From: a virus
Reading direction: 5' to 3' (one strand)
IMG/VR virus record: IMGVR_UViG_3300044769_000068
Span: 1 to 36,619 of that record
Length of the DNA: 36,619 nucleotides
The translations under genes and the position numbers were made by a program. Within the stretch, counting starts at the first letter, position 1, and each line of letters starts with the position of its first letter. This document shows, piece by piece, positions 19,123 through 34,419 of this stretch. A model generated the notes under the pieces. That model was not told the origin of the DNA, made no database searches, and saw nothing but the letters and a program-made list of their open reading frames with translations.

Positions 19123-19125
19123 CAT

Positions 19126-19200: not shown

Positions 19201-19203
19201 ATT

Positions 19204-19277: not shown

Positions 19278-19280
19278 CAT

Positions 19281-19352
19281 GTCCTTTTAGTGAAATGGAT
19301 CTCACGCAATGTTCCTACCGTTGAATTGTAGGTTCGATTCCTACAAAGGACA
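19281..19352 (+). tRNA. tRNA-Arg(CCT)
   Basis: CAATG-ttCCTac-CGTTG. Confidence 0.88.
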
Positions 19353-19431
19353 CATATAAGATAGCGCTGGGGTAAGGCTGACCACCCCAGTCCGGTTAGC
19401 TGGTCACTAATTGGACTCCTGGCGCTTATAA

Positions 19432-19628: not shown

Positions 19629-19631
19629 CAT

Positions 19632-19704
19632 GCCCTCTTAGTGAAACGGATAATCACGTTGCGCTTCGAACGCAAAGATAGGGGTTCGAATCCTCTAGAG
19701 GGTG
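19632..19704 (+). tRNA. tRNA-Arg(TCG)
   Basis: TTGCG-ctTCGaa-CGCAA. Confidence 0.9.
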
Positions 19705-19709
19705 CATAC

Positions 19710-19785
19710 GGTCGGATAGGATAAGTTGTCCAGTCTAGCAAGTACACCTAGATGGGAGCAGGCTAACGCTCTGCAATGACCACCA
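19710..19785 (+). ncRNA. tRNA-like RNA with 9-nt anticodon loop and encoded CCA
   Basis: GGTCG/TGACC-ACCA; GGATA/TGTCC; TCTAG-caagtacac-CTAGA; GCAGG-ctaacgc-TCTGC. Confidence 0.55.
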
Positions 19786-19788
19786 AAT

Positions 19789-19859
19789 GGGTTGTTCGTC
19801 TAATGGTAAGACAAGTGCCTCCAAAACACTTTATGTGGGTTCGATTCCTACACTTCCCG
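19789..19859 (+). tRNA. tRNA-Trp(CCA)
   Basis: ctCCAaa loop; two U-U mismatches in the acceptor stem. Confidence 0.85.
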
Positions 19860-19870
19860 CAGGAGATAAA

Positions 19871-20458
19871 ATGAGTATTAAAAGCTATTTCACCTGGGCT
19901 CCAAAGTTACCTAAGAAACCCGTGTATGATATGGATGAGGTGATGGAATCTTTTGAGTATCGTAAAGAGACTACATTTGAGAATCACTATTTGAATGTCT
20001 ATTACTGGTTTAAGAGAAACTTTGATTTTCTCTGGACACCAGCCATCGCAAAGGGCTACATAAAGCGCGCATGTCAGATTATCGTTCGTGGATGGAGCGA
20101 TAGAGATATCTGGTCATTAGATTGGACTATCGCTAAGTTTGCTCTACCTAGACTGATCAGACTCAAAGAAGTAATGCACGGTGTTCCCAACTCGATGTTT
20201 GAACCGCTTCCAGAAGGTGAGCATAATCATGATAAAGAGCAAATGGCGGCAGCCGAAAAGAAGTGGAACGAAACGCTTGATGAAATCATTTTTGCTATGG
20301 ACTATATTGCTAATTGTCGTGAGCACGATTATTACCCCAAGAAAAAATGGCCAGAAAAAACCGTTAGAGAAGACTACGTAGAGCTTAGAGCCGTAGAGGA
20401 AAGAGTTCAAAAAGGTTTAGCGTTGTTTGGAACCCACTTCAGAAGTTTGTGGGATTAA
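19871..20458 (+). CDS. Hypothetical phage protein
   Basis: SD AGGAG; start revised to lie downstream of tRNA-Trp. Confidence 0.8.
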   Translation: MSIKSYFTWAPKLPKKPVYDMDEVMESFEYRKETTFENHYLNVYYWFKRNFDFLWTPAIAKGYIKRACQIIVRGWSDRDIWSLDWTIAKFALPRLIRLKEVMHGVPNSMFEPLPEGEHNHDKEQMAAAEKKWNETLDEIIFAMDYIANCREHDYYPKKKWPEKTVREDYVELRAVEERVQKGLALFGTHFRSLWD

Positions 20459-20459
20459 T

Positions 20460-20533
20460 GCCTCGACTAACTCAAATGGTTAGAGTGCGAGTCTGAAAAG
20501 CTCGAAATTCCGGTTCGATTCCGGGGCGAGGCG
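20460..20533 (+). tRNA. tRNA-Phe(GAA)
   Basis: CGAGT-ctGAAaa-GCTCG. Confidence 0.88.
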
Positions 20534-20537
20534 CATT

Positions 20538-20608
20538 GCCGGCGTAGCTCAAAAGTAGAGCAATCGGCTGATAACCGATCGACGGAGGGGCAGTACCTCT
20601 CGACGGCA
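20538..20608 (+). tRNA. tRNA-Ile(GAT), T loop GGCAGTA
   Basis: ATCGG-ctGATaa-CCGAT. Confidence 0.85.
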
Positions 20609-20615
20609 CATTTGT

Positions 20616-20644
20616 TGTACAGCCGCTACAGCTTATGATATAAT
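20616..20644 (+). promoter_or_regulatory. Phage promoter
   Basis: TGTACA-N17-TATAAT. Confidence 0.8.
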
Positions 20645-20671
20645 GTATTCATAAATAATCGAGGTGAGTGC

Positions 20672-21037
20672 ATGTTAGAACTTTTATTCTTTCTAGTCTT
20701 TACGCACTTCGTAATGGATTTTTGCATGCAATCGGATTTTATGTCAAAGTATAAAGGCAAGCTTCCGTTTGTGATGTTTGTGCATGTATTTGTCTGGACG
20801 TTTGCGGTTTGTTGGATGGCAACTTATTTCGGAGCTTTGTCTTGGTGGGCTCCAATTTTCTTGTTTGTGGGACACTGGGCTTGCGATCAATATAAGATTC
20901 ATTTGATCGAAAAAGAAAACTTGAAGGATGAAGCTAATCCGGACGTGCTATCCAGATTAAAGTTCTTGTTTCATGCTGATCAAGTTTGGCATTTAGTTCA
21001 GCTTTTAATTGTAGCAACACTTGGGGTCTTAGTTTAA
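20672..21037 (+). CDS. DUF3307-like membrane protein
   Basis: HFVMDF..Q...K, H...H, HW..D, DQ.WH; hydrophobic segments. Confidence 0.7.
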   Translation: MLELLFFLVFTHFVMDFCMQSDFMSKYKGKLPFVMFVHVFVWTFAVCWMATYFGALSWWAPIFLFVGHWACDQYKIHLIEKENLKDEANPDVLSRLKFLFHADQVWHLVQLLIVATLGVLV

Positions 21038-21093
21038 TGGGAAAACTCTCGGCTTGCACCCGAATGATAAGGGTTCGATTCCCTTAGGCTCCA
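21023..21093 (+). tRNA. tRNA-Ala(TGC)
   Basis: G3:U70; ctTGCac loop. Confidence 0.88.
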
Positions 21094-21183
21094 CATGGGA
21101 GGGTGGCGAGACAGCACTCTCATTCGCCGGCCAGTCTGCAGCTCGGACCGGGATACGAATGCTTGAGCCACCCAACCAGCCAC

Positions 21184-21251
21184 ATTCTGTTAGTTTAATA
21201 AAACGCCTTCTCGTAGAGAAGGAGATGCTGGTAGATGGCCGGCACAGAATA
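21184..21251 (+). ncRNA. Degenerate tRNA-like RNA (GTA at anticodon position)
   Basis: ATTCTGT/ACAGAAT; GTTT-aata-AAAC; CCTTC-tcGTAga-GAAGG; GCTGG-tagatgg-CCGGC. Confidence 0.6.
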
Positions 21252-21323
21252 ATTTTAAACTCAAGGAGGATGTACACATGATAGAGAGTATCTAGTCTGG
21301 CTAGCCAGACATAGGAGGCTATC

Positions 21324-21455
21324 ATGGGTTACTATCCTCATCGAGATAGAACCGCCAAGAACTACGGGGAAATGGGATCCAACCCCAACCGCAAGCGTCG
21401 TGGCAAGAAACGCGGAATGAAGGCTGGCAAGCAGAAGAAAGCTCGTCGAGCCTAA
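21324..21455 (+). CDS. Small highly basic protein (43 aa; not in ORF track)
   Basis: SD AGGAGG; MGYYPHRDRTAKNYGEMGSNPNRKRRGKKRGMKAGKQKKARRA. Confidence 0.7.
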   Translation: MGYYPHRDRTAKNYGEMGSNPNRKRRGKKRGMKAGKQKKARRA

Positions 21456-21536
21456 CAAAAATTTGTCAAAGGCTCAGGACGCTGAGAAATGGGCAAATAG
21501 TGTGGAGTCCCAGGCACTATAAATACTGGGTCATTT

Positions 21537-21608
21537 GGGGCTATAGCTCAGAGGGAGAGCGTTCCGGTGGCATCGGAAAGGCCAAGGGTTCAATCCCCTT
21601 TAGCTCCA
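21537..21608 (+). tRNA. tRNA-Ala(GGC)
   Basis: G3:U70; TTCCG-gtGGCat-CGGAA. Confidence 0.9.
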
Positions 21609-21609
21609 C

Positions 21610-21691
21610 ATTCGGTTCGTCTAATTTAAGGACGCTCTCTACTTTCTGGAAACAGGGGAGGGAAACGCTGGTAAAACAGCACCGAATACCA
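21610..21691 (+). ncRNA. Anticodon-less tRNA-like RNA with encoded CCA
   Basis: ATTCGGT/ACCGAAT-ACCA; D arm; long arm capped by CTG-GAAA-CAG; GCTG-gtaaaa-CAGC. Confidence 0.65.
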
Positions 21692-21694
21692 TAT

Positions 21695-21765
21695 TCCCTT
21701 ATCCTTCAACGGCAGGAGAGGTGACTGTTAATCACTCAATCGAGGTTCGAATCCTCGTAGGGGAG
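21695..21765 (+). tRNA. tRNA-Asn(GTT)
   Basis: GGTGA-ctGTTaa-TCACT. Confidence 0.9.
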
Positions 21766-21787
21766 CATTTCAACAAGGAGGTCTTAT

Positions 21788-22042
21788 ATGCAATGCACAA
21801 ATTGTCATGCTGATATTGGTGCTTGGCTGTTGAAATATAGAGTTATGCCCAAAGTTCGGCTTGATGAAATGTACTTTAAAGAAGAAAAGCTTGTTGCAAA
21901 AATGGACGAATCTGGCATTTATATTGACGGCCAGAAGTTTTACGAACACGAATCTAAAAGATGCCACGAACGATGCCCAAAATGTGGCGCAAAAAATACT
22001 GTAAGAGTAGAGTACGACGAAGTTACTTGGGCGCCCATCTAA
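21788..22042 (+). CDS. Hypothetical Zn-ribbon protein
   Basis: SD AGGAGG; CTNC...CPKC. Confidence 0.7.
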   Translation: MQCTNCHADIGAWLLKYRVMPKVRLDEMYFKEEKLVAKMDESGIYIDGQKFYEHESKRCHERCPKCGAKNTVRVEYDEVTWAPI

Positions 22043-22043
22043 T

Positions 22044-22115
22044 GCGGGTGTAATTCATCGGTAGAATACCTGGTTGCCAACCAGAATGCGGTGGGTTCGA
22101 TTCCCATCACCCGCT
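22044..22115 (+). tRNA. tRNA-Gly(GCC)
   Basis: ttGCCaa loop, U73. Confidence 0.9.
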
Positions 22116-22186
22116 CAATACAATCCCGGGCTTGATATGTAATCAGCCGGCGTCGCGCTGACAAGAATCAAGGTAGTCAGAAGCAA

Positions 22187-22257
22187 GGTTCCTTATGTTA
22201 ATGGTAGACGGTCTCCGTGACATGGAGAAGACAGAAGTTCGATTCTTCTAGGAACCA
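22187..22257 (+). tRNA. tRNA-Val(GAC)
   Basis: TCTCC-gtGACat-GGAGA. Confidence 0.88.
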
Positions 22258-22260
22258 ATT

Positions 22261-22333
22261 GGCCTTGTAGACCAACGGCAGAGTCAACAGTCTGAGAGGC
22301 TGTGCAGTGTGGGTTCGAATCCCACTAGGGCCA
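22261..22333 (+). tRNA. tRNA-Leu(GAG), short variable loop
   Basis: ACAGT-ctGAGag-GCTGT. Confidence 0.88.
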
Positions 22334-22334
22334 C

Positions 22335-22586
22335 ATGCAGAAATCAGAGAACAAAATAAAGCCGATGTACTTTTGGTCAGATGGCTATAAAGAATTCGGC
22401 ATACTAGAACCCGATCACAAGAAAATAAAAGAAGATGAATTAGTAGATGCTAACGAAGAGGAAAGCGAATTTATTTTTGAACCAACAATAAAAATCTCCA
22501 ATAGACAGACTAAGCGAAGGAAACTCAGAAATTTTCTTAAAAGTGAAGTACAAAAAGCGCTTCGGTACGCAAGATTTTATCGCTAA
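22335..22586 (+). CDS. Hypothetical protein
   Basis: ORF between tRNAs. Confidence 0.5.
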   Translation: MQKSENKIKPMYFWSDGYKEFGILEPDHKKIKEDELVDANEEESEFIFEPTIKISNRQTKRRKLRNFLKSEVQKALRYARFYR

Positions 22587-22599
22587 AAGGAGGTCGCGC

Positions 22600-22821
22600 A
22601 TGAGATTCAAAAAGACAACCTGGTACAACATGAAGACCGACAGTGCGAATTATGGCATCAAGATTAAGTATGCAAATCTCAAGTTCTTGGACGTAGCTGA
22701 AAACGGAAAGCCTCTCATTTTTGAAACAGAACTAGAACGGGATGAAAAAATTAAGCAGATAAAGAGAGACAGCAAAGCAAAAGACTTTGAATCAAGAATG
22801 AAGTTTGTCAGAGCGATATAG
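22600..22821 (+). CDS. Hypothetical protein
   Basis: SD AGGAGG before MRFKK. Confidence 0.65.
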   Translation: MRFKKTTWYNMKTDSANYGIKIKYANLKFLDVAENGKPLIFETELERDEKIKQIKRDSKAKDFESRMKFVRAI

Positions 22822-22824
22822 AAC

Positions 22825-22897
22825 GGCCTCGTACCCCAACGGCAGAGGGAACACGTTTAGACCGTGTACAGTGTCGGTTCGAATCCGACCGGGGCTA
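22825..22897 (+). tRNA. tRNA-Leu(TAG), short variable loop
   Basis: ACACG-ttTAGac-CGTGT. Confidence 0.88.
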
Positions 22898-22904
22898 ATG
22901 ATTT

Positions 22905-22981
22905 GCCCGCTTAGGTTAAAACAAGCAAACCGGCGGTTTTGTACATCGCTAATACCGCTGCAAACGCGGTAGCGGGCTCCA
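22905..22981 (+). tRNA. Atypical tRNA-Thr(TGT) with encoded CCA
   Basis: GCCCGCT/AGCGGGC-TCCA; GCGGT-ttTGTac-ATCGC; T loop TGCAAAC; D loop lacks GG. Confidence 0.7.
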
Positions 22982-22987
22982 GCAAAC

Positions 22988-23058
22988 GCACTCATAGTTC
23001 AATGGCAGAACAACTGTTTCGTAAGCAGTAGATCTCGATCCGATTCCGAGTGGGTGCT
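22988..23058 (+). tRNA. tRNA-Thr(CGT)
   Basis: ACTGT-ttCGTaa-GCAGT; T loop TCCGATT. Confidence 0.82.
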
Positions 23059-23156
23059 CATGAAAAAGAATAAACAAAATAAACAGCGGATGTTTTATTG
23101 GCAAGTTTCTAAGAAGAATGGTAAAATCTTTATATGCAAGCTTATAGAGATTAAAC

Positions 23157-23837
23157 ATGAAGAATAGAACAGAAGTAAAGTATGTGATTAAGCTTTATGA
23201 AGCGCAATGGGACAGACACCATAACGAATCGGTCAAGCCATTTTTTGAGCAGCTTCAGAGAGAATGTTTTGACGATGGTGATGGCCACGATCCGCTATTT
23301 TCATATTACGTATTCCAGACGGCAGAAGGAATCGAGGCAGCGCTTAATTACAAGCTCGACGTTGGATTAGATGGCCGGCTAAAGATAGGGTATTTTGGAG
23401 TGCACGGTCAGACAGACCAGATTCAAGCGCTTAAGCCCATCAATAGGATGAAGCTTAGAAATATTTTAATTAAGACGACCAACTTCGACGGGCTGTATTT
23501 CGGTACGTGCGACTTTGCTAATAGAAAAACAGCAGAACTATTGCTGAATAACATATCCACACTCAAGTGGGTCGCTGGCTTTTCTAAGTGGACGCCGTGG
23601 TTGGAAGGTACGATTTGTGATATACTGTTCTTTAGGCTGTTGTTGTCAGGTCGTTTCAGAAGGCCGTCCCATACAAACACCAAGTGGGACATAATGACTA
23701 AGCCAGAGGACGCTGCTAGACACTTGTATGAAATTTATCCAATGGCTGTTGATTTAAAGTTCTCGCTGTTTTATAGAGGGTCTAGCGGCATTAATTCAAC
23801 GTATGATGACTGGACAAATAGGATAATGGCATTATGA
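23157..23837 (+). CDS. Hypothetical protein, possible caspase/CHAT-like fold (DUF6642-like)
   Basis: YFGVHG...LYFGTC...VAGFSK..W: His-Gly and Cys spacing. Confidence 0.5.
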   Translation: MKNRTEVKYVIKLYEAQWDRHHNESVKPFFEQLQRECFDDGDGHDPLFSYYVFQTAEGIEAALNYKLDVGLDGRLKIGYFGVHGQTDQIQALKPINRMKLRNILIKTTNFDGLYFGTCDFANRKTAELLLNNISTLKWVAGFSKWTPWLEGTICDILFFRLLLSGRFRRPSHTNTKWDIMTKPEDAARHLYEIYPMAVDLKFSLFYRGSSGINSTYDDWTNRIMAL

Positions 23838-24070
23838 TAAAATACCTCGTAATCTTTTTTGCATTAGTTCTTACCGACATTGTATGGGCTCTCTACATTA
23901 GATGGGCTGCAAGTGGTAAAGCAATGAAAGCGGGACTTTCGTCTATTCTCATTTATGTCATAGGCGCTTTTACATTCGGTGAGTTCATTAAAGATACGTG
24001 GGTTTTGATTCCTGCCGGATTAGGCTGTTTTGTGGGAACTTACGCAACGATAAAATGGCTAGACAAGTAG
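23834..24070 (+). CDS. Small membrane protein
   Basis: Three hydrophobic segments. Confidence 0.7.
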   Translation: MIKYLVIFFALVLTDIVWALYIRWAASGKAMKAGLSSILIYVIGAFTFGEFIKDTWVLIPAGLGCFVGTYATIKWLDK

Positions 24071-24141
24071 GGTCGTGTAGCTCAATAGTAGAGCAGTCGC
24101 CTTATAAGCGACCGACGAAGGGGCAGAACCTTCTACGACCA
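24071..24141 (+). tRNA. tRNA-Ile(TAT), T loop GGCAGAA
   Basis: GTCGC-ctTATaa-GCGAC. Confidence 0.82.
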
Positions 24142-24159
24142 ATCGACAAGAGGTGAAAA

Positions 24160-24849
24160 ATGTGTAAGCCAGGACATTTATGGATAAACGATCTCAAAAT
24201 TGATACGATAATAGATGTCGGCGCCAATGTTGGTGACTTTTCAAAAGAAATGCGGAAATATAGACCAGAGGCTCTTATCTATGCCTTTGAGCCCTTGCCA
24301 TATGAATACGACGCACTAATTACAGCTTTCAAATACGATAAGCGGTTCAAATCCTTTAATTTAGCTTTATCGGATAAGGAAGCAGTCGTTCCGTTTAACG
24401 TAACAAGTTTTGGCCCTGCAAGTTCTATATTGCAGATGAACGACACTCTAATCGATTATATTAATAATGGGTTTAAGACGAACGTAACTGCATCGCCAAT
24501 TCTTGTTCAAGCAGTTACATTGGACTCAATTTTTGCCGATAGCATTTTGGGTCCATCCCTTTTAGTAAAGATAGACACTCAGGGATTTGAAGACAAAGTA
24601 ATAAAAGGTGGCGAGAAAACTATTCGTAGAGCAAAAGTGTGCTTTCTTGAAACAGAGTTTCAGCCGCTATACAAAGGACAAGCTTTATTTATAGACATAT
24701 TGAATCAAATGGACGCGCTTGGCTTTACTTATTTTGGCGATAAGGATTACGTTTCATATCACCTGACTAATGGTACGGCGCTTTGGCAAGATAGTATTTT
24801 CGTGAACAAAAGTCTCTTGAAGGACGGTGTTTATCAAGGGCTCTCGTAG
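24160..24849 (+). CDS. FkbM-family SAM-dependent methyltransferase
   Basis: IIDVGANVG, YAFEP, ALSD, TLD, KIDTQGFE..VIKGG. Confidence 0.9.
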   Translation: MCKPGHLWINDLKIDTIIDVGANVGDFSKEMRKYRPEALIYAFEPLPYEYDALITAFKYDKRFKSFNLALSDKEAVVPFNVTSFGPASSILQMNDTLIDYINNGFKTNVTASPILVQAVTLDSIFADSILGPSLLVKIDTQGFEDKVIKGGEKTIRRAKVCFLETEFQPLYKGQALFIDILNQMDALGFTYFGDKDYVSYHLTNGTALWQDSIFVNKSLLKDGVYQGLS

Positions 24850-24912
24850 GCCAACGGCAGAGTCAGCAGGCTTAAACCCTGTACAGTGTCAGTTCGAATC
24901 TGACCGGGAGCA
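24840..24912 (+). tRNA. tRNA-Leu(TAA), short variable loop
   Basis: GCAGG-ctTAAac-CCTGT. Confidence 0.88.
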
Positions 24913-24915
24913 CAT

Positions 24916-24987
<72 letters not shown>

Positions 24988-24995
24988 CATTTTGA

Positions 24996-25024
24996 TGTAC
25001 AATCAAATGCATTTGTGGTATAGT
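24996..25024 (+). promoter_or_regulatory. Phage promoter
   Basis: TGTACA-N17-TATAGT. Confidence 0.75.
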
Positions 25025-25080
25025 AGTTATATCAATTGAAAGGAGCCAAAATCCAACGATGGGAAGGAAGACCCACCGCG

Positions 25081-25596
25081 ATGAAAAAGATATTAATAAT
25101 CACGATTATAGCATGTACGGCTTTGTTCGCATCCATGTTTACAAGACCGGATCAGAGATTGTTGCTTACGCTGGATTCGGTGAATCACCCGGATGTGATA
25201 CAAGTAGAAAAGATGATAGACAAGACGGGAGCAGATGTCCCGGCAGTTACAAAAAAGAAAGTGGCCCTTGCTATAGCAGAACATGCTAAATACTATGGAA
25301 TAAAACCAAAGAATTTAGTTGCTATAGCATTTGTTGAGTCAAAATTTCAACCAACCCTTATCAATAGTACAGGCGACCATGGATTGATGCAGATCAATTG
25401 GCCGACTTGGAAGAACAGATTCACAAGAGATCCAAAAGATCTTCTTAACGTCTACAAGAATGTAGAAGTTGCATGCAAAATTATCAATATAAACAAAAGC
25501 ATGGGACAGACTGACTTGGCCGATTATCATTCTTTTAATGATGAACCAAAAGCCATTTATCAGGCTAAATTAAGAGAAGTTCTGAGGAGGCTCTAA
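25081..25596 (+). CDS. Lytic transglycosylase (SLT domain) with N-terminal signal/anchor
   Basis: AIAFVESKF, GLMQIN, NV..AC.I motifs. Confidence 0.85.
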   Translation: MKKILIITIIACTALFASMFTRPDQRLLLTLDSVNHPDVIQVEKMIDKTGADVPAVTKKKVALAIAEHAKYYGIKPKNLVAIAFVESKFQPTLINSTGDHGLMQINWPTWKNRFTRDPKDLLNVYKNVEVACKIININKSMGQTDLADYHSFNDEPKAIYQAKLREVLRRL

Positions 25597-25934
25597 TGTC
25601 TAATACGCTCGACGCTGTAAAGGCAACACTGACGAGAGAGAGAACTGCGCTAGACAAAGAATTGAAGCAGCCTTGGTACGACACATTTGTTTGTGGTGCG
25701 CTTGTCTGCGGGATTGCCGTGGCCATCGTAATCATGTTTTTAGACACGAAGAAATACGCTATTCAAGAGAGAATGACGAGAATGCATATAGAAGCTGTAA
25801 CAGCTACAGATAAAAATTGTAATGATTGTCATTTGGGCGCTTCTTTTGTTAATTTATTCAACCACCCAATGGTGAAAGCTGATGATAATGTCATTACTCT
25901 CATGATGGATAAGGCTAAGATAAAGCGATGGTAA
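25596..25934 (+). CDS. Membrane protein with CxxCH motif
   Basis: TM helix then CNDCH. Confidence 0.6.
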   Translation: MSNTLDAVKATLTRERTALDKELKQPWYDTFVCGALVCGIAVAIVIMFLDTKKYAIQERMTRMHIEAVTATDKNCNDCHLGASFVNLFNHPMVKADDNVITLMMDKAKIKRW

Positions 25935-26052
25935 AAGAATACAAAGAAAAAGAATTTTTTAATTGCGAGTTTTGCCGTTGCAGAACTAATGCAAATCTTC
26001 GTAGATGCTGTGAATTGGGCTACGAGGCTGATTTAAGAAAGAGTAAGAAATT

Positions 26053-26140
26053 AGCGGGTGAATCGGCGGATGTGCAGATACCAGCCTCATAAGCTGGGAG
26101 ACAAAATCTCTAGCCTGTTTAACTCAGGTACCCGCTACCA
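26053..26140 (+). tRNA. CAT-anticodon tRNA with long variable arm and encoded CCA
   Basis: AGCGGGT/ACCCGCT-ACCA; CCAGC-ctCATaa-GCTGG; V arm GAGA-caaaa-TCTC; T loop TTTAACT. Confidence 0.7.
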
Positions 26141-26214
26141 ATAAGCAGTTTCCCTTGCTAAGTGCCGGGGAGTAAAACGAGAGGGTGATAACGCTCCTCT
26201 TGTTCCTGCACAAC

Positions 26215-26286
26215 GGCTTACGAATAAGTATTCAGCTGCGGCTCATAACTGCGGCCTACTCGGGGCGGTACCGAGGTAAGCCACCA
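26215..26286 (+). tRNA. CAT-anticodon tRNA with tRNA-Pyl-like compact architecture
   Basis: GGCTTAC|GAAT-aagt-ATTC|a|GCTGCGG-ctCATaa-CTGCGGC|cta|CTCGG-ggcggta-CCGAG|GTAAGCC-ACCA. Confidence 0.7.
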
Positions 26287-26291
26287 CAAAT

Positions 26292-26362
26292 TGACCTATG
26301 GTGAAACAGTATCACGGTTGGCTTTGAACCAGCAGTCCGAGGGGCGGCACCTCGTGGGTCAG
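26292..26362 (+). tRNA. tRNA-Gln(TTG), T loop GGCGGCA
   Basis: GTTGG-ctTTGaa-CCAGC; U1:A72, G73. Confidence 0.82.
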
Positions 26363-26369
26363 CATACAT

Positions 26370-26440
26370 TGGCACATCGTTCAACGGTAGGACAAACGGC
26401 TCTGACCCGTTCAATCGAGGTTCAAATCCTTGTGTGCCAG
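26370..26440 (+). tRNA. tRNA-Gln(CTG)
   Basis: AACGG-ctCTGac-CCGTT. Confidence 0.9.
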
Positions 26441-26588
26441 CATAAGAAAGCCTGTGGTCATAGAACTCATCAGCCAAGAGCTGAAGGAGATGGGCTAGCC
26501 CTAGTGCGTTAGTCTTGATTTTAGATTGGTGCCAGGTGATGGAATACTGGCTCAAATACCGTTATACCCAGACGGAGCCAATCTTTAC

Positions 26589-26672
26589 GGTAAGGGTCCG
26601 GCATGGACGAGGACACCGGCTTGAACCCGGCTGGCTGTAAAAGGCTCAGGAGTTCGATTCTCCTCCTTATCG
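26589..26672 (+). tRNA. tRNA-Ser(TGA)
   Basis: ctTGAac loop, long V arm, G73. Confidence 0.85.
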
Positions 26673-26768
26673 CACGTGCAAGACAGGAAAAGTCTAAGGA
26701 AATCGCCAACGCCTTAGAGGACTGAGTAATCAACGCAGGGTGGCTCCGGTTGATTCGTCTTGCCGTTT

Positions 26769-26859
26769 GGTGGAATACTCTAGTCTGGTAAGAGGCAGTC
26801 TTGGAAAGGCTGTGCACACGGTGAGAGCCGTTACGTAGGTTCGAACCCTACTTCCACCG
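26769..26859 (+). tRNA. tRNA-Ser(GGA)
   Basis: CAGTC-ttGGAaa-GGCTG, long V arm. Confidence 0.9.
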
Positions 26860-26877
26860 CATAAAAAGGAGAAATGC

Positions 26878-27048
26878 ATGGATGCTGACTTAATTAAAAG
26901 GGTCGTTTCATTATGTGTTGAAGGTCTTACAACAGACGGCGGTCATCACAAACAGTGGTATTTAGAGCAGATTCTTAGATCGATTTCTGGGGCTCGTTAT
27001 CATGAATTTAAACGAGAACATGAATGGGAAAAGGGAATAGCACCATAA
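26878..27048 (+). CDS. Small phage hypothetical protein (56 aa; not in ORF track)
   Basis: SD AGGAG; DGGHHKQWYLEQI...WEKGIAP. Confidence 0.75.
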   Translation: MDADLIKRVVSLCVEGLTTDGGHHKQWYLEQILRSISGARYHEFKREHEWEKGIAP

Positions 27049-27049
27049 C

Positions 27050-27081
27050 GGTAGGGATCCGGCTGGATGAGAAATAGTCTT
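27050..27081 (+). pseudogene. 5' half-remnant of a tRNA-Ser-like gene
   Basis: GGTAGGGATCCGGCTGGATGAG resembles the 5' end of tRNA-Ser(TGA) at 26589. Confidence 0.45.
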
Positions 27082-27168
27082 GGTAAGATGCTAGAGTCTG
27101 GCTAATTAGCTCCGTTTCGAAAGCGGATGGGTGTAAAAGCCACGTGAGTTCGAATCTCACTCTTACCC
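27082..27168 (+). tRNA. tRNA-Ser(CGA)
   Basis: TCCGT-ttCGAaa-GCGGA, long V arm. Confidence 0.88.
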
Positions 27169-27226
27169 ATAAGTAGCAAAAAGCCTCGAACTCTTCCTAA
27201 TTTAGAACATTAGGAGGAAAGAAATC

Positions 27227-27871
27227 ATGTATAAATTCGTAGTCTATAAAACAATAAATCGTATCAATAATCGTTATTATGTTGGTGTTCACAGAACCAA
27301 AGACATAAACGATAGATACTTGGGTTCTGGCATTCTTTTAAAGGTTGCAATCAAGAAGTATGGTAAAGAGAACTTCACAAAAGAGATCCTTGCAATCTTC
27401 GATTCTTATGAAGAAGCTTTCAATAAAGAACGAGAAATTGTTACTCTTGAATTAATAGAAAAGGGCGAATGCTATAACCTTCATTGCGGTGGCGATGGAA
27501 ATTGGGATAGCATCAACTACGGAAAGTTAAAATATCTTCATCCCTCGTCTAATTGGGCTGTCGCAGATAAAAAGATTAAAGAAAGAATGACAAAGGGCGG
27601 TCTAAAGGGATTTAAGCACGCAAGAGAAATTAAATCTCAGATGATAAAAGACGGCCTACTTAAAAATGATTCTTTTAAAGGCAAAAGACATTCAGACGAG
27701 TTTAAGCAAAGATTATCGATTATAATGAAAGAAAAACAATGCGGAGAAAACAATTCACAATACGGGACTTGTTGGATTCATAATGATTCACAGAGCAAGA
27801 AAGTACGAAAAGAAGAGTTGGATGGTTTTATAGAAAGTGGTTGGAAAAAGGGTAGAGTACTCAAGTGGTAA
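27227..27871 (+). mobile_element. Free-standing GIY-YIG homing endonuclease (Seg-like, NUMOD3-type motif)
   Basis: VVYKTIN..N.RYYVGVH...YLGSG...E; FKGKRHSDEFK; AT-rich. Confidence 0.85.
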
Positions 27872-27935
27872 AGAGGGGAGTTTGCTAAACTCTTAGGGTG
27901 TAAAAGCCGCGCAGGTTCGAATCCTGCCTCTATCG
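27851..27935 (+). tRNA. tRNA-Ser(GCT)
   Basis: GGAGT-ttGCTaa-ACTCT, long V arm. Confidence 0.9.
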
Positions 27936-27938
27936 CAC

Positions 27939-28010
27939 GTCCTTGTAGGCTAATGGATAAACCGAATGGCTACGAACCATTCATTGTGAGTTCGAATCTC
28001 GCCGAGGACA
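27939..28010 (+). tRNA. tRNA-Arg(ACG)
   Basis: AATGG-ctACGaa-CCATT. Confidence 0.9.
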
Positions 28011-28011
28011 C

Positions 28012-28191
28012 ATGAAATATTTATACTGGATAAATATCCACTACGCATGTTATGGTATAATAGTACATGACGGCGTAGTAATCGAGGCACCGCCGATTGC
28101 TAAGTGGGCCATTGGTAAGACCTTCGATGATTTCAAGAAGTTCGTCAAGAAAAAAAACGGCCAGATAAAAGGTAAGCATCTGCCGGGTTAG
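28012..28191 (+). CDS. Small phage hypothetical protein (59 aa; not in ORF track)
   Basis: MKYLYWINIHYACYGIIVHDGVVIEAPPIAKWAIGK... Confidence 0.65.
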   Translation: MKYLYWINIHYACYGIIVHDGVVIEAPPIAKWAIGKTFDDFKKFVKKKNGQIKGKHLPG

Positions 28192-28252
28192 TCTAATGGT
28201 AAGACGCCTCTTTGGTAAGGAGGAAACACGAGTCCGATTCTCGTACTTGGCT
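28182..28252 (+). tRNA. tRNA-Thr(GGT)
   Basis: CCTCT-ttGGTaa-GGAGG. Confidence 0.85.
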
Positions 28253-28255
28253 CAT

Positions 28256-28328
28256 GGCTCTTTGGGTGAATGGTTATAGCCAGCTGCCTGCAAAGCAGTG
28301 AAAACTGGTTCAATTCCAGTAAGAGCCT
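28256..28328 (+). tRNA. tRNA-Cys(GCA)
   Basis: GCTGC-ctGCAaa-GCAGT, U73. Confidence 0.9.
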
Positions 28329-28335
28329 CATTTGT

Positions 28336-28364
28336 TGTACAACCGCTGTAATTTATGATATAAT
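28336..28364 (+). promoter_or_regulatory. Phage promoter
   Basis: TGTACA-N17-TATAAT. Confidence 0.8.
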
Positions 28365-28417
28365 GGATTCAAATGGAACAAGGTGATTGTTCCACTTACA
28401 ACAGGGAGGAGATCCCA

Positions 28418-29488
28418 ATGCGAAAATACCAATACGCCGTATTCATTGGCCGGTTCCAGCCACTCCACAATGGACACTTAGAAAACATCCAAAATGCGTT
28501 GAAGATTGCTGACAAGGTTCTTATACTTGTCGGCTCTGCTTTCGCCGCCCGCAACATCCGAAATCCCTTTACATTTGAAGAGCGTAAACGAATGATTCTC
28601 AATTCTTTCGGCTTTAATAGTTGGCGTGACGATCCGCCAAAAGACGAAGAAGGTGTAGTCATATTCAATCGTTTGCTTATTAAACCCGTTAGAGACTTCC
28701 TCTACAACGATCAAGATTGGATCGCTGAAGTACAAGGCGTTGTTAACGAGGAGATCGATCAATTCGATGAGGACGTCAAAGTGGTGCTTGTGGGAATGAA
28801 GAAGGACGATACTACGTTCTATCTTGATATGTTTCCACAGTGGAATTTTGTGGCAACTAATGAGGTTGTAAGCCACGCCGCCACAATTATTAGGGACAAG
28901 TATTTCACTTATGAAATTGATTATCGATTTCTTGATTGCCCTGATCCCGTAAAAGCATTTCTACAGGACTTTAGGCAGACAGAAGATTATATCCATCTTT
29001 CAGATGAGCACTCTTTTGTCAAGAAATATAGAGAGTCTTTCAGCGCTCTTCCGTATCCGCCGACGTTTGTTACAACTGATGCAGTAGTCCTTTGTAACGG
29101 ACACGTGCTGCTTGTCAAACGAAAGGCTAACCCTGGAAAAGGGTTGTGGGCGCTCCCTGGCGGCTTCATCAAACACGACGAGAGGATTGACGATTGTACG
29201 ATTAGAGAGCTTAAAGAAGAGACACGGATCGAGGTTCACAAGAATGTGATTAAAGGGTCTTTTGTGACGTCCAACGTTTTTGACGCTCCAAACAGATCAT
29301 TGAGAGGTCGTACGATTACACACGCTTCGTTATATGTTCTTAGGCAGATTGCTTTGCCTAAGGTGAAGGGAAGCGACGATGCTGAAAAGGCTAAATGGTT
29401 TCCATACGTAGAGTTCTATGACATGGAAGACAAGCTTTATGAAGATCATTTCCACATTGTAAAGCACTTTATTGGATTGGCCCGATAA
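28418..29488 (+). CDS. nadM: Bifunctional NMN adenylyltransferase / ADP-ribose pyrophosphatase (NadM-Nudix)
   Basis: FIGRFQPLHNGH, NPFTFEER; Nudix box GGF...E....CTIRELKEET. Confidence 0.92.
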   Translation: MRKYQYAVFIGRFQPLHNGHLENIQNALKIADKVLILVGSAFAARNIRNPFTFEERKRMILNSFGFNSWRDDPPKDEEGVVIFNRLLIKPVRDFLYNDQDWIAEVQGVVNEEIDQFDEDVKVVLVGMKKDDTTFYLDMFPQWNFVATNEVVSHAATIIRDKYFTYEIDYRFLDCPDPVKAFLQDFRQTEDYIHLSDEHSFVKKYRESFSALPYPPTFVTTDAVVLCNGHVLLVKRKANPGKGLWALPGGFIKHDERIDDCTIRELKEETRIEVHKNVIKGSFVTSNVFDAPNRSLRGRTITHASLYVLRQIALPKVKGSDDAEKAKWFPYVEFYDMEDKLYEDHFHIVKHFIGLAR

Positions 29489-29524
29489 CCGCGGAGAGCG
29501 GTTGGGACAGGAAGGAGATTCCAA

Positions 29525-30901
29525 ATGGATAACATGATTCTTATGACCGACAGCTACAAGGCAAGCCACTGGAAGCAGTATCCGCCAGGTACGACTGATG
29601 TTTATTCTTACATTGAGGCACGGGGTGGGGACTTTCCAGAGACAGTGTTTTTCGGATTACAAATGATTCTTAAGAAGTTCTTTGTCAGGCCGATCACTCA
29701 GGAGATGATTGATGAGGCTGATGAGTTCTTCAAGATACACGGAGAGCCTTTTAACAAGGAAGGGTGGGAGTACATCCTCAAGAAGCATAATGGTTATCTT
29801 CCTCTACGAATCATGGCCGTTCCAGAAGGACGGAGAGTAAACCTCAAGAATATTCTGGTGTCTGTTGAAAATACAGATCCAGAATGCTATTGGCTTACTT
29901 CTTACATCGAGACAGTTCTTATGAGGGCTGTCTGGTATCCGACAACTGTGGCAACCAATTCTTACCGGGCTAAGCGGCTGATCTACGATTTCCTCAAGGC
30001 AACATGCGATGACCCTGATGGGCAGATCATGTTCAGACTTCACGACTTTGGCGGTCGTGGCGTTTCTTCAGGCGAATCGGCTGAGATTGGAGGCGCAGCC
30101 CACTTAGTGAACTTCATGGGTTCTGATACAGTAGAGGGAATTTGGGCTGCCAACAAGTACTACAATGCTGGGATGGCTGGATTTTCTATTCCTGCAGCTG
30201 AGCACAGCACGATTTGTGTTTGGGGCCGAGGAAATGAAGCTGACGCTTATAGAAATATGGTGAATGCTTATGGCGGCCCTGGCAAGATTTATGCTTGTGT
30301 CTCGGATAGCTATGATATTTATAACGCCGCTGACAATATCTGGGGAAAACAACTGAAAGACCTTGTTCTGAAAACGGGTGGTACGTTAGTAGTAAGACCT
30401 GATAGTGGTCATCCGCCTACGGTAGTAGCCCGACTGCTGCAAATCCTTGGCGATCGGTTTGGTTGCACTGTCAATGGAAAAGGCTTTAAAGTATTGAATC
30501 CAGCGATCCGTGTCATCCAAGGCGATGGTTGTACTCTCCAGATGATCAACGAGATTCTTCATGCAATGTGGAAGAATCAGTGGTCTGCAGAGAATGTCGC
30601 TTTCGGAATGGGTGGCGGTCTCTTGCAGAAACTTGACCGCGATACTTTCAAGTTTGCTATGAAGGCATCGTACGCAAAAGTGAATGGCAAAGAGATCCTT
30701 GTCTACAAGGAGCCGATTACTGACGAGGTTAAAATCTCGAAGAAGGGCAAGCTGGCTCTTGTAGAAACAATGGATGGATACGAAACCGTCATGCAAGGCA
30801 CTAAATGGTACGATCGGGACGTCCTTGAAGAAGTATTCCTGAACGGCAAGATTACCAAGGAATACACGTTTGAGGAAGTCAGAAAGAACGTGGCATATTA
30901 A
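29525..30901 (+). CDS. nadV: Nicotinamide phosphoribosyltransferase (NAMPT)
   Basis: TDSYKASHW.QYPP, LHDFGGRG, SIPAAEHS, VSDSYD, VRPDSG, VIQGDG, FGMGGGLLQ. Confidence 0.95.
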   Translation: MDNMILMTDSYKASHWKQYPPGTTDVYSYIEARGGDFPETVFFGLQMILKKFFVRPITQEMIDEADEFFKIHGEPFNKEGWEYILKKHNGYLPLRIMAVPEGRRVNLKNILVSVENTDPECYWLTSYIETVLMRAVWYPTTVATNSYRAKRLIYDFLKATCDDPDGQIMFRLHDFGGRGVSSGESAEIGGAAHLVNFMGSDTVEGIWAANKYYNAGMAGFSIPAAEHSTICVWGRGNEADAYRNMVNAYGGPGKIYACVSDSYDIYNAADNIWGKQLKDLVLKTGGTLVVRPDSGHPPTVVARLLQILGDRFGCTVNGKGFKVLNPAIRVIQGDGCTLQMINEILHAMWKNQWSAENVAFGMGGGLLQKLDRDTFKFAMKASYAKVNGKEILVYKEPITDEVKISKKGKLALVETMDGYETVMQGTKWYDRDVLEEVFLNGKITKEYTFEEVRKNVAY

Positions 30902-30902
30902 T

Positions 30903-31691
30903 ATGAAAGTAATAAATCATAGAGAATTTGCCAATGGGCAAGTCTTTGCATTGAAGCTTTACGACGGGATGCTGATTGAAACGACCGATACGTTCCTTCC
31001 GTTCTATACGAAGGATGCGGCATCTCAGCACGATAATGCTCTTCATAGCAAATACTGGGTGGGCGACCGGTCAGAAAGATGGATGATTGGTGTTTCCACA
31101 ATGTCTGGATGTCCTGTGAAATGCAAGTTTTGTGCCGCGGGTAAGCTAAAACAGTGGAGAAACTTGACGGCCGAAGAGATAGTCAATCAGATTCTCTTCG
31201 TACGAGAACAGAATCACAACAACGATCCTCGGTATTGTAAAGAGTTCAAGGTAAACTACACAAGAATGGGAGAGCCCTTTCTGAACATCTTTGAGGTACA
31301 AAAGGCAATAAGTATGATTAGCCGGATGCACCCTAGTGCTCACCATTATGTGTCGACGATTGGGCTAAAAGGGTCCGACTTCTCATGGATAAAGGACAAC
31401 ATTACGTTACAGATTTCCCTCCATTCGTTGGACGAGGAAAGGCGGAAGTGGCTTATACCAATAAACAACCTGATGACTCTAGAGGAGCTGGGAGCTATCA
31501 GAACGGGTAGTCATTTGAAAACTACAATCAACTTGACACTTGTGGACGAAAAAGACTTTGACATCAAGAAACTCCGCAAATACTTCGATCCCAAGTACTT
31601 CTTCATCAAGCTGTCTCCGATCAATGAGAATGAGATCAGCAAAGGAAATGACTTAGGCAAGGGCGTCATTGAACAACTCAATCTTGTCTAG
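30903..31691 (+). CDS. RlmN/Cfr-like radical SAM protein lacking the C-terminal catalytic Cys segment
   Basis: VSTMSGCPVKCKFCA, RNLTAEEIVNQI, MGEPFLN, VSTIG, LQISLHS...R.WLIP. Confidence 0.85.
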   Translation: MKVINHREFANGQVFALKLYDGMLIETTDTFLPFYTKDAASQHDNALHSKYWVGDRSERWMIGVSTMSGCPVKCKFCAAGKLKQWRNLTAEEIVNQILFVREQNHNNDPRYCKEFKVNYTRMGEPFLNIFEVQKAISMISRMHPSAHHYVSTIGLKGSDFSWIKDNITLQISLHSLDEERRKWLIPINNLMTLEELGAIRTGSHLKTTINLTLVDEKDFDIKKLRKYFDPKYFFIKLSPINENEISKGNDLGKGVIEQLNLV

Positions 31692-31704
31692 AAGGGAGGA
31701 CCAA

Positions 31705-31827
31705 ATGGAAACTATTAAGAAGCAGTTGGCTGAAGAAGGCTATGAGTTTGCGGTCGCTGTCGCAACTCAGGCTGAGATTGAGGCTGGGGCGGCTTGTGGG
31801 CAGTTGTCAATTATTTCTGAAGAATAA
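31705..31827 (+). CDS. 40-aa peptide corresponding to the RlmN/Cfr C-terminus (AACGQL; not in ORF track)
   Basis: Own SD GGGAGG; METIKKQLAEEGYEFAVAVATQAEIEAGAACGQLSIISEE. Confidence 0.85.
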   Translation: METIKKQLAEEGYEFAVAVATQAEIEAGAACGQLSIISEE

Positions 31828-31830
31828 CGA

Positions 31831-31860
31831 TGTACAATTGTGGCAGAAGTATGATATAAT
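31831..31860 (+). promoter_or_regulatory. Phage promoter
   Basis: TGTACA-N18-TATAAT. Confidence 0.7.
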
Positions 31861-32170
31861 GTACTTACAATGGCGGATAGGAGAGATTTTAGTGATCCTG
31901 AGTCCGTCCGGGTGGGCTCCCGTAACTACCAGAACAGCCCATGAGCGCAGTACAGAGAAGTACAGGTTTGGCCGTTCCTGTTAAAAACGGCCAGCCATTA
32001 CGTTTCCTCGTTAGAACACCATAATTTAGTACTTACCGATGTTGCATGGGAGGTTGAAATATGCATACTGTAAGAGAAGCAGTTAGAAAAATTATCGATG
32101 AGTTGCGTGCTCAGATCGAGGCTTCTAAAAAGAAACTCGTGAAAAGGGCTACTCGAAAGAAGTAAGCTGT

Positions 32171-32241
32171 GCCCTTGTAGCTTAATGGAAAAGCAGCGGT
32201 TTTGTAAACCGCCGATGTTGGTTCGATTCCGACCTGGGGCT
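32171..32241 (+). tRNA. tRNA-Thr(TGT)
   Basis: GCGGT-ttTGTaa-ACCGC. Confidence 0.9.
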
Positions 32242-32263
32242 CACCAAATAAAAAGGAGTACGT

Positions 32264-32455
32264 ATGGCTAAAAAGAAAAGTCCGATGACAAAGAGACCGA
32301 GCACGCTGGTCGTAGCACCGGGATGTGAAGCTTGCAGCAAAGTGTGCAAATACAACGGCCCTGTTGCTGATCCTTTTATGGCGGCAGAGTGGAAACGAGA
32401 AGAGCCCTACGGTTGTAATTCAAAACTTACGGGCTTTGGACTAGAAGGAGTATGA
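32264..32455 (+). CDS. Hypothetical protein
   Basis: SD AGGAG. Confidence 0.6.
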   Translation: MAKKKSPMTKRPSTLVVAPGCEACSKVCKYNGPVADPFMAAEWKREEPYGCNSKLTGFGLEGV

Positions 32456-32627
32456 AATGGACGCGCAGAAGATTAAGGAAATTCAGGGATTAATAACTAG
32501 ACATCAAAAAGCAGTTCTGCCTCAGCCGCCACGTCCTGCAGGTCATAATCGTCAGGATGAAGATTTAAATAAGGTGGCAGCCAATGATATTATTGGAAAG
32601 GGTGGAGAGTCAGATCTCCGCAAATAA

Positions 32628-32963
32628 ATGAAAATTGAAATAGACGTCGATCCGTCTAAAAAAGAAATTGTAATTAAAGATGGCGCAGGAAACGAACGCT
32701 ATGTAAAAAGCATCGTCATTTGCGGAGGCGACGCCACAGCTGGGAAGTTTTATTTATTTGGATGGGGCTCTTCTGCAGATGGCGGCTGGGCGTTAGCTCA
32801 TTCGCTAAAGGCTACGGAAGATCCTTTTTACAAGAGGTTGTTCGATCACTTCTTTAGATGGCTGGGAATCAATAACGGGATGGCTATTGTTGGAGAAGAG
32901 CCTGAAGCTATTTTAAAGAGGTGGGAGGCAGAAGACAAGAAAAACACTCCGACGTACAATTAA
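32628..32963 (+). CDS. Hypothetical protein
   Basis: ORF in operon context. Confidence 0.65.
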   Translation: MKIEIDVDPSKKEIVIKDGAGNERYVKSIVICGGDATAGKFYLFGWGSSADGGWALAHSLKATEDPFYKRLFDHFFRWLGINNGMAIVGEEPEAILKRWEAEDKKNTPTYN

Positions 32964-32968
32964 CAAAC

Positions 32969-33041
32969 GCCCTTGTAGGCTAAGTGGATAAACCATCAGG
33001 TTTCTACCCTGAGTTTGGGGGTTCGAGTCCTCCCAAGGGCG
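32969..33041 (+). tRNA. tRNA-Arg(TCT)
   Basis: TCAGG-ttTCTac-CCTGA. Confidence 0.9.
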
Positions 33042-33044
33042 CAT

Positions 33045-33118
33045 GGCTTCGTAGGCCAATTGGCAGAGTCAGCAGGCTCAAACCCTGTTCAGTGTCAGTT
33101 CGAATCTGACCGGAGCCA
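33045..33118 (+). tRNA. tRNA-Leu(CAA), short variable loop
   Basis: GCAGG-ctCAAac-CCTGT. Confidence 0.88.
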
Positions 33119-33140
33119 CATCATACAAAAGGAGACGCAT

Positions 33141-33420: not shown

Positions 33421-34419
33421 ATGTCTGTTTTTCATTCCTACGAAAAAGTTGAACGTCTAGAAAAAGAAGAGTGCGATGGCATTCTCAATGGCATTTGCTA
33501 CATCTTTGAGAAGCTAGACGGTGCTAACGCACAGATCTATCTAGACACTGTCACTAACGAGATTGCGTTCGGTAGTCGCAACCGGGTTCTCGGCATTGGT
33601 GACAATCTTGTCTCGGGAGATTCTTTTAGAGGCTTTGCTGGCTGGGTAAAGGAAAACAAACTCAGCTTAAGCAATTTCTTCACTATTTATCCCGACTATA
33701 TTCTCATGGGCGAGTGGCTTATTAAGCATTCTCTTCCGTACCATGCTTCCGCGTATCAAAATTTCTATGTTTTTGATGTCTACAACACTGTCAAAGAGCG
33801 ATACGTCCGTTTTGCTGACGGCGATGATGCCTACGTGTGGAATACTGTTCAAAAAGCGGGTCTTAAGACTATCAAGCTAGACGACGCGCTCACTAATCCG
33901 ACAATGGAAGATCTGCAGAGAATGCTTGGTATTCCTTCGTACTACGGCGCTCCGTTTCGCGAGGGCATCGTAATTAAGAATTACGATTTCGTGAACAAGT
34001 GGGGTCGCCAGCCTTATGGTAAACTTCTTCATGAAACTTTCAAGGAAGTCAAAGCTACTCCAAAAGCTCCCGCAGGTGAAGACGCAATTGAAAGGGCTGT
34101 TCAGGTTCAGTACGTTACTGAAGCTCGTGTAAATAAGATTTGCTACAAAATCAAGTATCTTGAAGTCTGCAAAATGCCAGAGTTTTCAGCTGACGACAAC
34201 GTTAGTTCTGCTGTAGAGAAATATAGACTTGAAATGAAGCATGTCCCTCAAGTTATCAACATGGTTTGGTATGACATCATCACAGAGGATATGAACGACA
34301 TTCTCAAGCGCCTCAAGGATCCAACTATTAATTTCAAGCTATTGAAGAGACTTGTATTTGAACGGGCAAAGGAATACTATATCCGTAGCCTACAAGAAGG
34401 AGTATTGCATGAAGGGTAG
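33421..34419 (+). CDS. RNA ligase (Rnl2-like nucleotidyltransferase)
   Basis: EKLDGAN, GSRNR, GEW, FYVFDV, EGIVIKN; no OB domain evident. Confidence 0.8.
   Translation: MSVFHSYEKVERLEKEECDGILNGICYIFEKLDGANAQIYLDTVTNEIAFGSRNRVLGIGDNLVSGDSFRGFAGWVKENKLSLSNFFTIYPDYILMGEWLIKHSLPYHASAYQNFYVFDVYNTVKERYVRFADGDDAYVWNTVQKAGLKTIKLDDALTNPTMEDLQRMLGIPSYYGAPFREGIVIKNYDFVNKWGRQPYGKLLHETFKEVKATPKAPAGEDAIERAVQVQYVTEARVNKICYKIKYLEVCKMPEFSADDNVSSAVEKYRLEMKHVPQVINMVWYDIITEDMNDILKRLKDPTINFKLLKRLVFERAKEYYIRSLQEGVLHEG

Follow-up and report, generated by a model that had tools for sequence, protein, structure and literature searches.

A phage RlmN/Cfr-like radical SAM protein whose putative methyl-carrier cysteine lies on a separate, conserved 40-residue protein

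RlmN and Cfr are the paradigm enzymes for radical methylation at sp2 carbons; in both, two cysteines are held to be indispensable. In RlmN, SAM methylates C355, the methyl group is converted to a methylene radical by a 5'-deoxyadenosyl radical, and this methylene radical attacks the adenosine at C2 or C8 (PMC9692996). Resolution of the protein-RNA crosslink cannot do without C118 (C105 in Cfr), which most likely acts as the general base; its mutation in either enzyme halts turnover and leaves that crosslink trapped, as in the C118A variant (PMC9692996). A phage record of 116 kb from IMG/VR, estimated to be 71% complete, raises the question of what becomes of this chemistry when the first cysteine is encoded by a separate small gene and the second is missing altogether. 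Here we describe the gene pair in the window, by which we mean the whole analysed stretch of 36,619 nucleotides (positions 1 to 36,619 of the record), together with its relatives in other phages, and weigh the ways in which the two products might act.

A radical SAM core and its cysteine loop on two genes

The features of the locus are collected in Table 1. A preliminary description of this DNA had reported a 262-residue radical SAM ORF and, 13 nucleotides on and in another frame, a 40-residue ORF with its own Shine-Dalgarno sequence, and this is indeed what the sequence contains: the peptide ORF is out of frame with the core ORF (offset 802 nt), and its Shine-Dalgarno sequence, AAGGGAGG, lies inside the spacer, five nucleotides before the ATG at 31705. 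The EAGAACGQLS motif said to end the small protein is also present, although the wording needs amendment in that IISEE continues after it.

Table 1. The gene pair, its key codons and the two genes upstream
Feature	Position	Strand	Basis or remark
NMNAT-Nudix gene	28373..29488	+	Pfam match
NAMPT gene	29525..30901	+	Pfam match; stop 1 nt before core ATG
Core gene, RlmN/Cfr-like radical SAM protein, 262 aa	30903..31691	+	ATG 30903, TAG 31689-31691
Gly63 codon (ggt) at the position of RlmN resolving Cys118	31089..31091	+	Alignments
Codons of the CxxxCxxC [4Fe-4S] motif, C70/C74/C77, CPVKCKFC	31110..31133	+	Read from sequence
Spacer between core and peptide genes, 13 nt	31692..31704	+	AAGGGAGGACCAA (read from sequence)
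Peptide gene, 40-aa acidic protein with AACGQL loop	31705..31827	+	ORF list, homologues, read-through model
Peptide Cys31 codon, equivalent to RlmN methyl-carrier Cys355	31795..31797	+	Invariant in GAACGQL; aligns with GGGCGQL of single-chain relatives

The core is readily placed among radical SAM proteins. It has the CxxxCxxC motif (C70, C74 and C77) in a partial TIM-barrel core that matches the RlmN structure, and the Radical_SAM entry of Pfam (PF04055) matches it at 30.4 bits. The models for the two specific enzymes score well below their cut-offs, TIGR00048 (RlmN) giving 78.9 bits where the cut-off is 290, and the CfrAB model 61.9 bits where it is 530. An AF2 model of the window core (alignment A2; mean pLDDT 89.2) matches residues 80-328 of Escherichia coli RlmN (3rf9_A) with a Z score of 22.6 and an rmsd of 2.5 Å for 225 residues, compared with Z scores of 15.8 for Cfr and no more than 12.1 for unrelated radical SAM enzymes. 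The N-terminal helical (HhH2-like) RNA-binding domain of RlmN is absent: residue 1 of the model falls at RlmN residue 80, and only 62 residues precede Gly63.

Two features expected of an RlmN/Cfr-type enzyme are not found in the core polypeptide. The chain stops at residue 262, and the methyl-carrier cysteine is found in trans, at Cys31 of the peptide. The position of the resolving or general-base cysteine, seven residues before the first cluster cysteine (C70), is occupied by Gly63, the window reading WMIGVSTMSGC and the host RlmN genes TLCVSSQVGC; the replacement of the first conserved cysteine that had been read from IGVSTMSGC is thus borne out. It had also been pointed out that another cysteine filling the resolving position would speak against a persistent crosslink. 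Alignments of the split-type family contain no fourth conserved cysteine in either core or peptide, the conserved cysteine columns of the cores (38 sequences) being the three cluster ligands only, and no substitute base for Cys118 was identified in the family.

The window peptide has a pI of 4.2 and consists of a helix, a strand and then the AACGQL loop. Strong acidity is a property of the peptides as a family (median net charge -6, pI 4.1), whereas the split-type cores are basic (median pI 8.2). Fourteen columns of the peptide alignment are invariant, among them the cysteine of G-A-A-C-G-Q-L. The window peptide and that of a relative (core identity 83%) differ synonymously at 10 codons and non-synonymously at 6; together with the invariant columns, these counts show the peptide to be under purifying selection.

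Alignment with single-chain phage relatives (the fused clade, see below) shows the peptide to be collinear with their C-terminus. A structural view of the same correspondence came from a relative 65% identical (locus L013), in which core and peptide lie in one frame, so that the two could be modelled as one chain by reading through a single TAA, with an alignment that included fused-clade proteins. The model has a pLDDT of 84.6 and a pTM of 0.87; the peptide helix reaches a pLDDT of about 83 but the Cys loop only 60-64, that is, moderate confidence. Its residues 1-307 match residues 80-362 of tRNA-crosslinked RlmN (5hr7_A) with a Z score of 26.8, the top structure matches being tied within 1 Z, the corresponding values being 18.1 for Cfr and at most 13.8 for unrelated radical SAM enzymes. 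Since the model reaches RlmN residue 362, the peptide corresponds approximately to RlmN 326-362, a segment that includes C355. RlmN residues 1-79 have no counterpart in this model or in that of the window core.

Conservation of the split and of the missing cysteine

Two adjacent ORFs in different frames immediately suggest a trivial explanation, namely that the split is an artefact or a sign of decay: the reads might contain a frameshift error, the gene might be newly pseudogenised, or programmed frameshifting or read-through might restore a single chain. The distribution of the design argues strongly otherwise. The identical 40-residue ORF is called on 11 contigs, and the two-gene design is seen at about 130 phage loci drawn from three collections, being kept down to a core identity of around 37%. 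A scan of viral contigs (IMG/VR) yielded 80 loci, 78 of which have a peptide gene on the same strand, whether overlapping the core gene, abutting it in any frame or sitting 0.3-5.6 kb downstream. Scanning 185,579 species genomes added 44 split-type loci, mostly on MAG or phage contigs; the peptide gene is present at 43 of these and in one case lies upstream of the core.

Six GenBank phages likewise carry a separate peptide gene. In Kehishuvirus tikkala (core 65% identical to that of the window) and in Moorella phage MTATph1 (43%) the truncated core is followed by a peptide gene with the AACGQL loop, of 43 and 40 residues respectively, while in Pectobacterium phage Arno18 and Yersinia phage P778 the peptide module comes one gene further downstream. 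The sizes of both products are well maintained: nearly all of the 2,065 core clusters at 90% identity are of 260-265 residues, the 264 clusters of free-standing peptide relatives span 37-61 residues, and an exhaustive search with the peptide profile returned 132 representatives at the 50% level. A 93-residue ORF of Vibrio phage D479 (L004:3300-3581) is made of two tandem peptide modules, each with an AACGQM loop.

Given the identical ORF on 11 contigs and some 130 loci with differing junctions, the split can be neither sequencing error nor chance. The reading frames vary from locus to locus, and the genes may overlap, be spaced, be separated by other genes or occur in reversed order, so that no single recoding signal could serve them all. 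No C-terminally fused split-type form was found in length-extended or exhaustive profile searches. Longer peptide matches were considered as candidate fusions to the core and set aside, being over-called starts or read-throughs of neighbouring genes; two long multi-repeat matches to the peptide profile (P0350 and P0365) have no cysteine and are unrelated ATQAE(V/I)DAG repeat proteins. The preliminary description had named two findings that would undo its case, a frameshift error in the reads and close homologues that are all single-chain, the latter indicating pseudogenisation. Neither obtains: the junctions and repeated contig calls rule against the first, and the close homologues are all split. 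To judge from the assembled sequences, the reading as artefact or decay is refuted for practical purposes, and we attach a negligible probability to it.

One fusion of another kind does exist. A protein of 315 residues (P0375), present on two contigs from two sequencing runs (L229:44-991 and L230:140-1087), has a permuted arrangement in which an N-terminal peptide module is joined through a linker of about 20 residues to a core of the Gly type. Another radical SAM gene lies downstream of it.

The missing cysteine is as regular a feature as the split. Glycine occupies the Cys118 position in every split-type core that was scored, comprising 76 from IMG/VR, 42 from the genome collection, six from GenBank and that of the window. 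A second phage clade consists of single-chain proteins and was sampled at 80 loci (median length 315 residues); here cysteine is found at the Cys118 position in all 78 scored sequences, and the fused GGGCGQ loop in 76 of the 78. Whether split and glycine go together had been proposed as a check on the original observation, and in the sampled loci split with Gly and fused with Cys co-occur without exception.

A quick maximum-likelihood tree, midpoint-rooted and with long branches meeting at the root, separates the split clade, the fused clade and canonical RlmN with SH-aLRT supports of 89, 97 and 100. Split and Cys-to-Gly change fall on one branch of this tree, which indicates a single evolutionary event that was then strictly maintained, rather than repeated convergence. 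Closest to the split clade in the tree is a small single-chain group (L218-L220), about 31% identical to the window core; its members have a fused CGQ loop and a cysteine two residues nearer the cluster (MT[VI]CTM[AS]GC).

Genomic neighbourhood and candidate targets

The gene order in the window is NMNAT-Nudix, NAMPT, core, peptide. Promoter-like sites of the form TGTACA-N17/18-TG-TATAAT, at 28336-28364 and 31831-31860, bracket the four genes and occur only before the first and after the last, giving the stretch 28336-31860 the appearance of one transcription unit. Two contigs encoding a core protein 85% identical to that of the window preserve the gene order. NAMPT or NMNAT genes lie within 5-6 kb at four other split-type loci (L010, L014, L092 and L093, of which L092 belongs to the window's own lineage). 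The fused clade shows a similar tendency, with NAMPT within 5 kb at 23 of 80 loci and NMNAT-Nudix at 17 of 80, spread over 8 of 21 clusters at 70% identity and in varying order. As background, the NAD+ salvage pathway NARP2 is carried by about 1.1% of phage genomes (10.1101/2024.02.11.579819), and we found NAMPT-like matches in 2,019 of 50,697 phage records. The linkage of the RlmN-like genes to NAD+ salvage thus appears enriched, the PhoH control scan for such linkage comprising 4 loci only, but it is not obligatory. Salvage genes as necessary partners were rejected, since three of the five complete GenBank carrier phages have no NAMPT and in the other two it is 13-27 kb away. The frequent association is also a hint that the pair may act in host take-over or counter-defence.

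A different set of genes is found between core and peptide at 21 of the 80 viral loci, where a MoaA/viperin-like second radical SAM gene of about 255 codons and a gene for a 148-residue class I methyltransferase intervene (for example L049:6780-7968, L075, L077 and L010:7208-9096). A spacing of 1.1-1.2 kb at many of the genome-collection loci (about 17) suggests the same four-gene arrangement. One of these viral loci (L010) has, between core and peptide, a third radical SAM gene, twin proteins of 81-82 residues, an NT5C-type nucleotidase and a Tpt1/KptA RNA 2'-phosphotransferase as well. No intervening radical SAM gene with small methyltransferase was found in the window's record, at its 71% completeness. 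The window does contain a radical SAM-like ORF elsewhere (12719-13624; 301 residues), with CNAACKYC near its N-terminus and scores of 20.5-20.9 bits, below the Pfam cut-off. It was considered as a counterpart of the second radical SAM gene and proved to be unrelated.

The window pair sits inside an array of 33 tRNA genes (15943-33119) predicted by ARAGORN, with Rfam also giving 33 matches at the gathering score. All but one of the ARAGORN tRNAs (32 of 33) have A37, the sole G37 being that of tRNA-Pro(TGG). The tRNA-Leu(GAG) and tRNA-Leu(TAG) of the array have A37; their bacterial counterparts usually have G37. Tempting as tRNA might be as a target, tRNA linkage as a general trait was rejected, with a tRNA gene within 5-6 kb at just 6 of 88 loci of the split set and 10 of 80 loci of the fused clade. 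Beyond the tRNAs, Rfam found no structured RNA around the pair. Other genes in this part of the window include a GIY-YIG/NUMOD3 homing-endonuclease-like ORF (27227-27871) and an FkbM-type methyltransferase (24160-24849) among the tRNA genes, an RNA ligase-family gene adjoining the array (33421-34419) and, further upstream, an ATP-dependent DNA ligase-family gene (14121-15098).

Four isolate genomes that bear the element also have a canonical RlmN, readily told apart by its TIGR00048 score of 346-366 bits against 75-90 for the split-type cores. In hosts with an RlmN of their own, plain m2A formation would be redundant, which makes simple duplication of the host activity unlikely. Furthermore, since the core is without the N-terminal RNA-binding domain of RlmN, RNA as the target is an assumption.

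Possible chemistry and comparison with known systems

How, then, might the two proteins act? The reading that we take up first, and to which we give an even chance, is that of a single RlmN/Cfr-type (class A) radical SAM enzyme made from both genes as two chains, with the peptide recycled and methylation as the net outcome. A two-chain methyltransferase had been suggested at the outset; the two-chain part of that suggestion has gained support from the conserved split, the collinear peptide and the read-through model, while methyltransferase activity is something that we infer. The core, assigned to RlmN 80-325, would hold the [4Fe-4S] cluster and the SAM site. The acidic peptide would use its helix and β-strand to dock on the basic core, much as residues 326-362 sit in RlmN, and docking would put its single cysteine at the active site. 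By analogy with RlmN, one SAM would methylate this cysteine and a second would be cleaved to a 5'-deoxyadenosyl radical, which would take a hydrogen from the S-methyl group; the methylene radical so formed would attack an adenine-type substrate, RNA being its most plausible context, at one of its sp2 carbons. Because the general-base cysteine is a glycine, product release would have to proceed by way of another residue, water or a partner enzyme, and the peptide would then be free for another round.

The charge complementarity of basic cores and acidic peptides favours assembly of the two chains, and the permuted fusion, which keeps the glycine, implies that the peptide can be used one-to-one in cis. 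Tight conservation of the docking helix and strand, and the fact that the peptide gene is normally single-copy, point to a recyclable subunit. A difficulty for a two-chain methylase is that RlmN and Cfr need the resolving cysteine, in place of which this family offers no fourth conserved cysteine.

That difficulty would vanish if the peptide were a consumable co-substrate, the Cys-S-CH2-adenine link being either the end product or an intermediate passed to other enzymes and the detached cysteine segment allowing the core to turn over, a reading that strikes us as possible though rather unlikely. Each reaction would leave a 40-residue peptide covalently attached to RNA or nucleotide, in effect the RlmN C118A trap occurring in nature. 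The loss of the resolving cysteine on the same branch as separation of the cysteine segment, and the strict retention of both, are what would be expected if the crosslink stays unresolved, and mutants of C118 in RlmN and C105 in Cfr do trap it (PMC9692996). That the peptide gene has its own strong Shine-Dalgarno sequence while the core depends on being coupled to the gene before it is consistent with such use, as are the tandem modules of Vibrio phage D479. So too is the presence, at about one third of loci, of the second radical SAM gene and the small methyltransferase gene between core and peptide, whose products could process an adduct. Against this, the fused P0375 would be a single-turnover protein, which weakens the adduct idea somewhat, the peptide gene is not normally multiplied, the co-occurrence of split and glycine counts as one event, and adduct chemistry is not visible from sequence.

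Put most specifically, the pair would be a peptide-conjugating system and not a methyltransferase: each 40-residue protein would serve once only, ending as a thioether in which a methylene derived from SAM bridges its cysteine and C2 or C8 of adenine in RNA or in an adenine nucleotide, and the split would be an adaptation for turnover of a core without a resolving cysteine. We put this forward tentatively, and regard it as rather unlikely.

It had also been proposed that the peptide is a RiPP-like substrate, a precursor that the radical SAM enzyme would turn into a bioactive peptide by modifying the cysteine. A small peptide encoded beside a radical SAM gene, with further radical SAM and methyltransferase genes at some loci, naturally brings such systems to mind. 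The peptide is, however, homologous over its whole length to the C-terminal segment missing from the enzyme itself and is conserved end to end, rather than being composed of a leader and a variable core. Moreover, according to Pfam, the core matches no peptide-recognition or SPASM family, and among the neighbours common across lineages there is no protease or exporter gene. The proposal therefore looks very improbable.

Among known systems the closest is RlmN, the dual-specificity C2-methyltransferase of 23S rRNA A2503 and tRNA A37 (PDB 3RF9/3RFA, 4PL1, 5HR6/5HR7 and 6FZ6). The phage pair shares with it the radical SAM core fold (Z 22-27), the CxxxCxxC, GEP and SxH core motifs, and an (A/G)ACGQL methyl-carrier loop that follows a helix and a strand. 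It departs from RlmN in having the Cys loop on a separate 40-residue product, Gly for Cys118, no equivalent of residues 1-79, and a short acidic tail in place of the basic C-terminal tail of RlmN. Cfr, the C8-methyltransferase of 23S rRNA A2503 (NF000424/TIGR04432; PDB 9P0P), has the same class A radical SAM methylase fold (Z 15.8-18.1) and the same two-cysteine logic, but is a single chain with both cysteines and more distant than RlmN. The sequence and structure comparisons hold no pointer to C8 over C2 chemistry.

The single-chain phage clade, of about 310 residues and exemplified by Stenotrophomonas phage ANB28 (XMQ95057), Salmonella phage Arash (gp133c) and Vibrio phage 166E36-1, is likewise phage-borne and devoid of the RlmN N-terminal domain, is about 30% identical to the window core and is often found beside NAMPT and NMNAT genes. 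It differs in being one polypeptide with a Cys118 equivalent and a fused GGGCGQL loop, and it forms a separate clade. A full-text search of the literature turned up no account of an RlmN-like enzyme that is split or phage-encoded.

A further comparison is with the laboratory mutants RlmN C118A/S and Cfr C105A, in which, as here, the resolving cysteine is gone and the methyl-carrier cysteine is kept. Those mutants are dead-end traps stuck to RNA, whereas this large phage family maintains the same state under selection, with its carrier cysteine on a detachable chain of 40 residues. The family therefore probably completes the reaction differently from RlmN, whether through a new way of resolving the Cys-CH2-adenine intermediate or as a natural enzyme for covalent peptide tagging of a nucleic acid or nucleotide. 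Either outcome should be of interest to radical SAM enzymologists and phage biologists alike and, at 262 and 40 residues, the pair is small enough to be directly testable in vitro.
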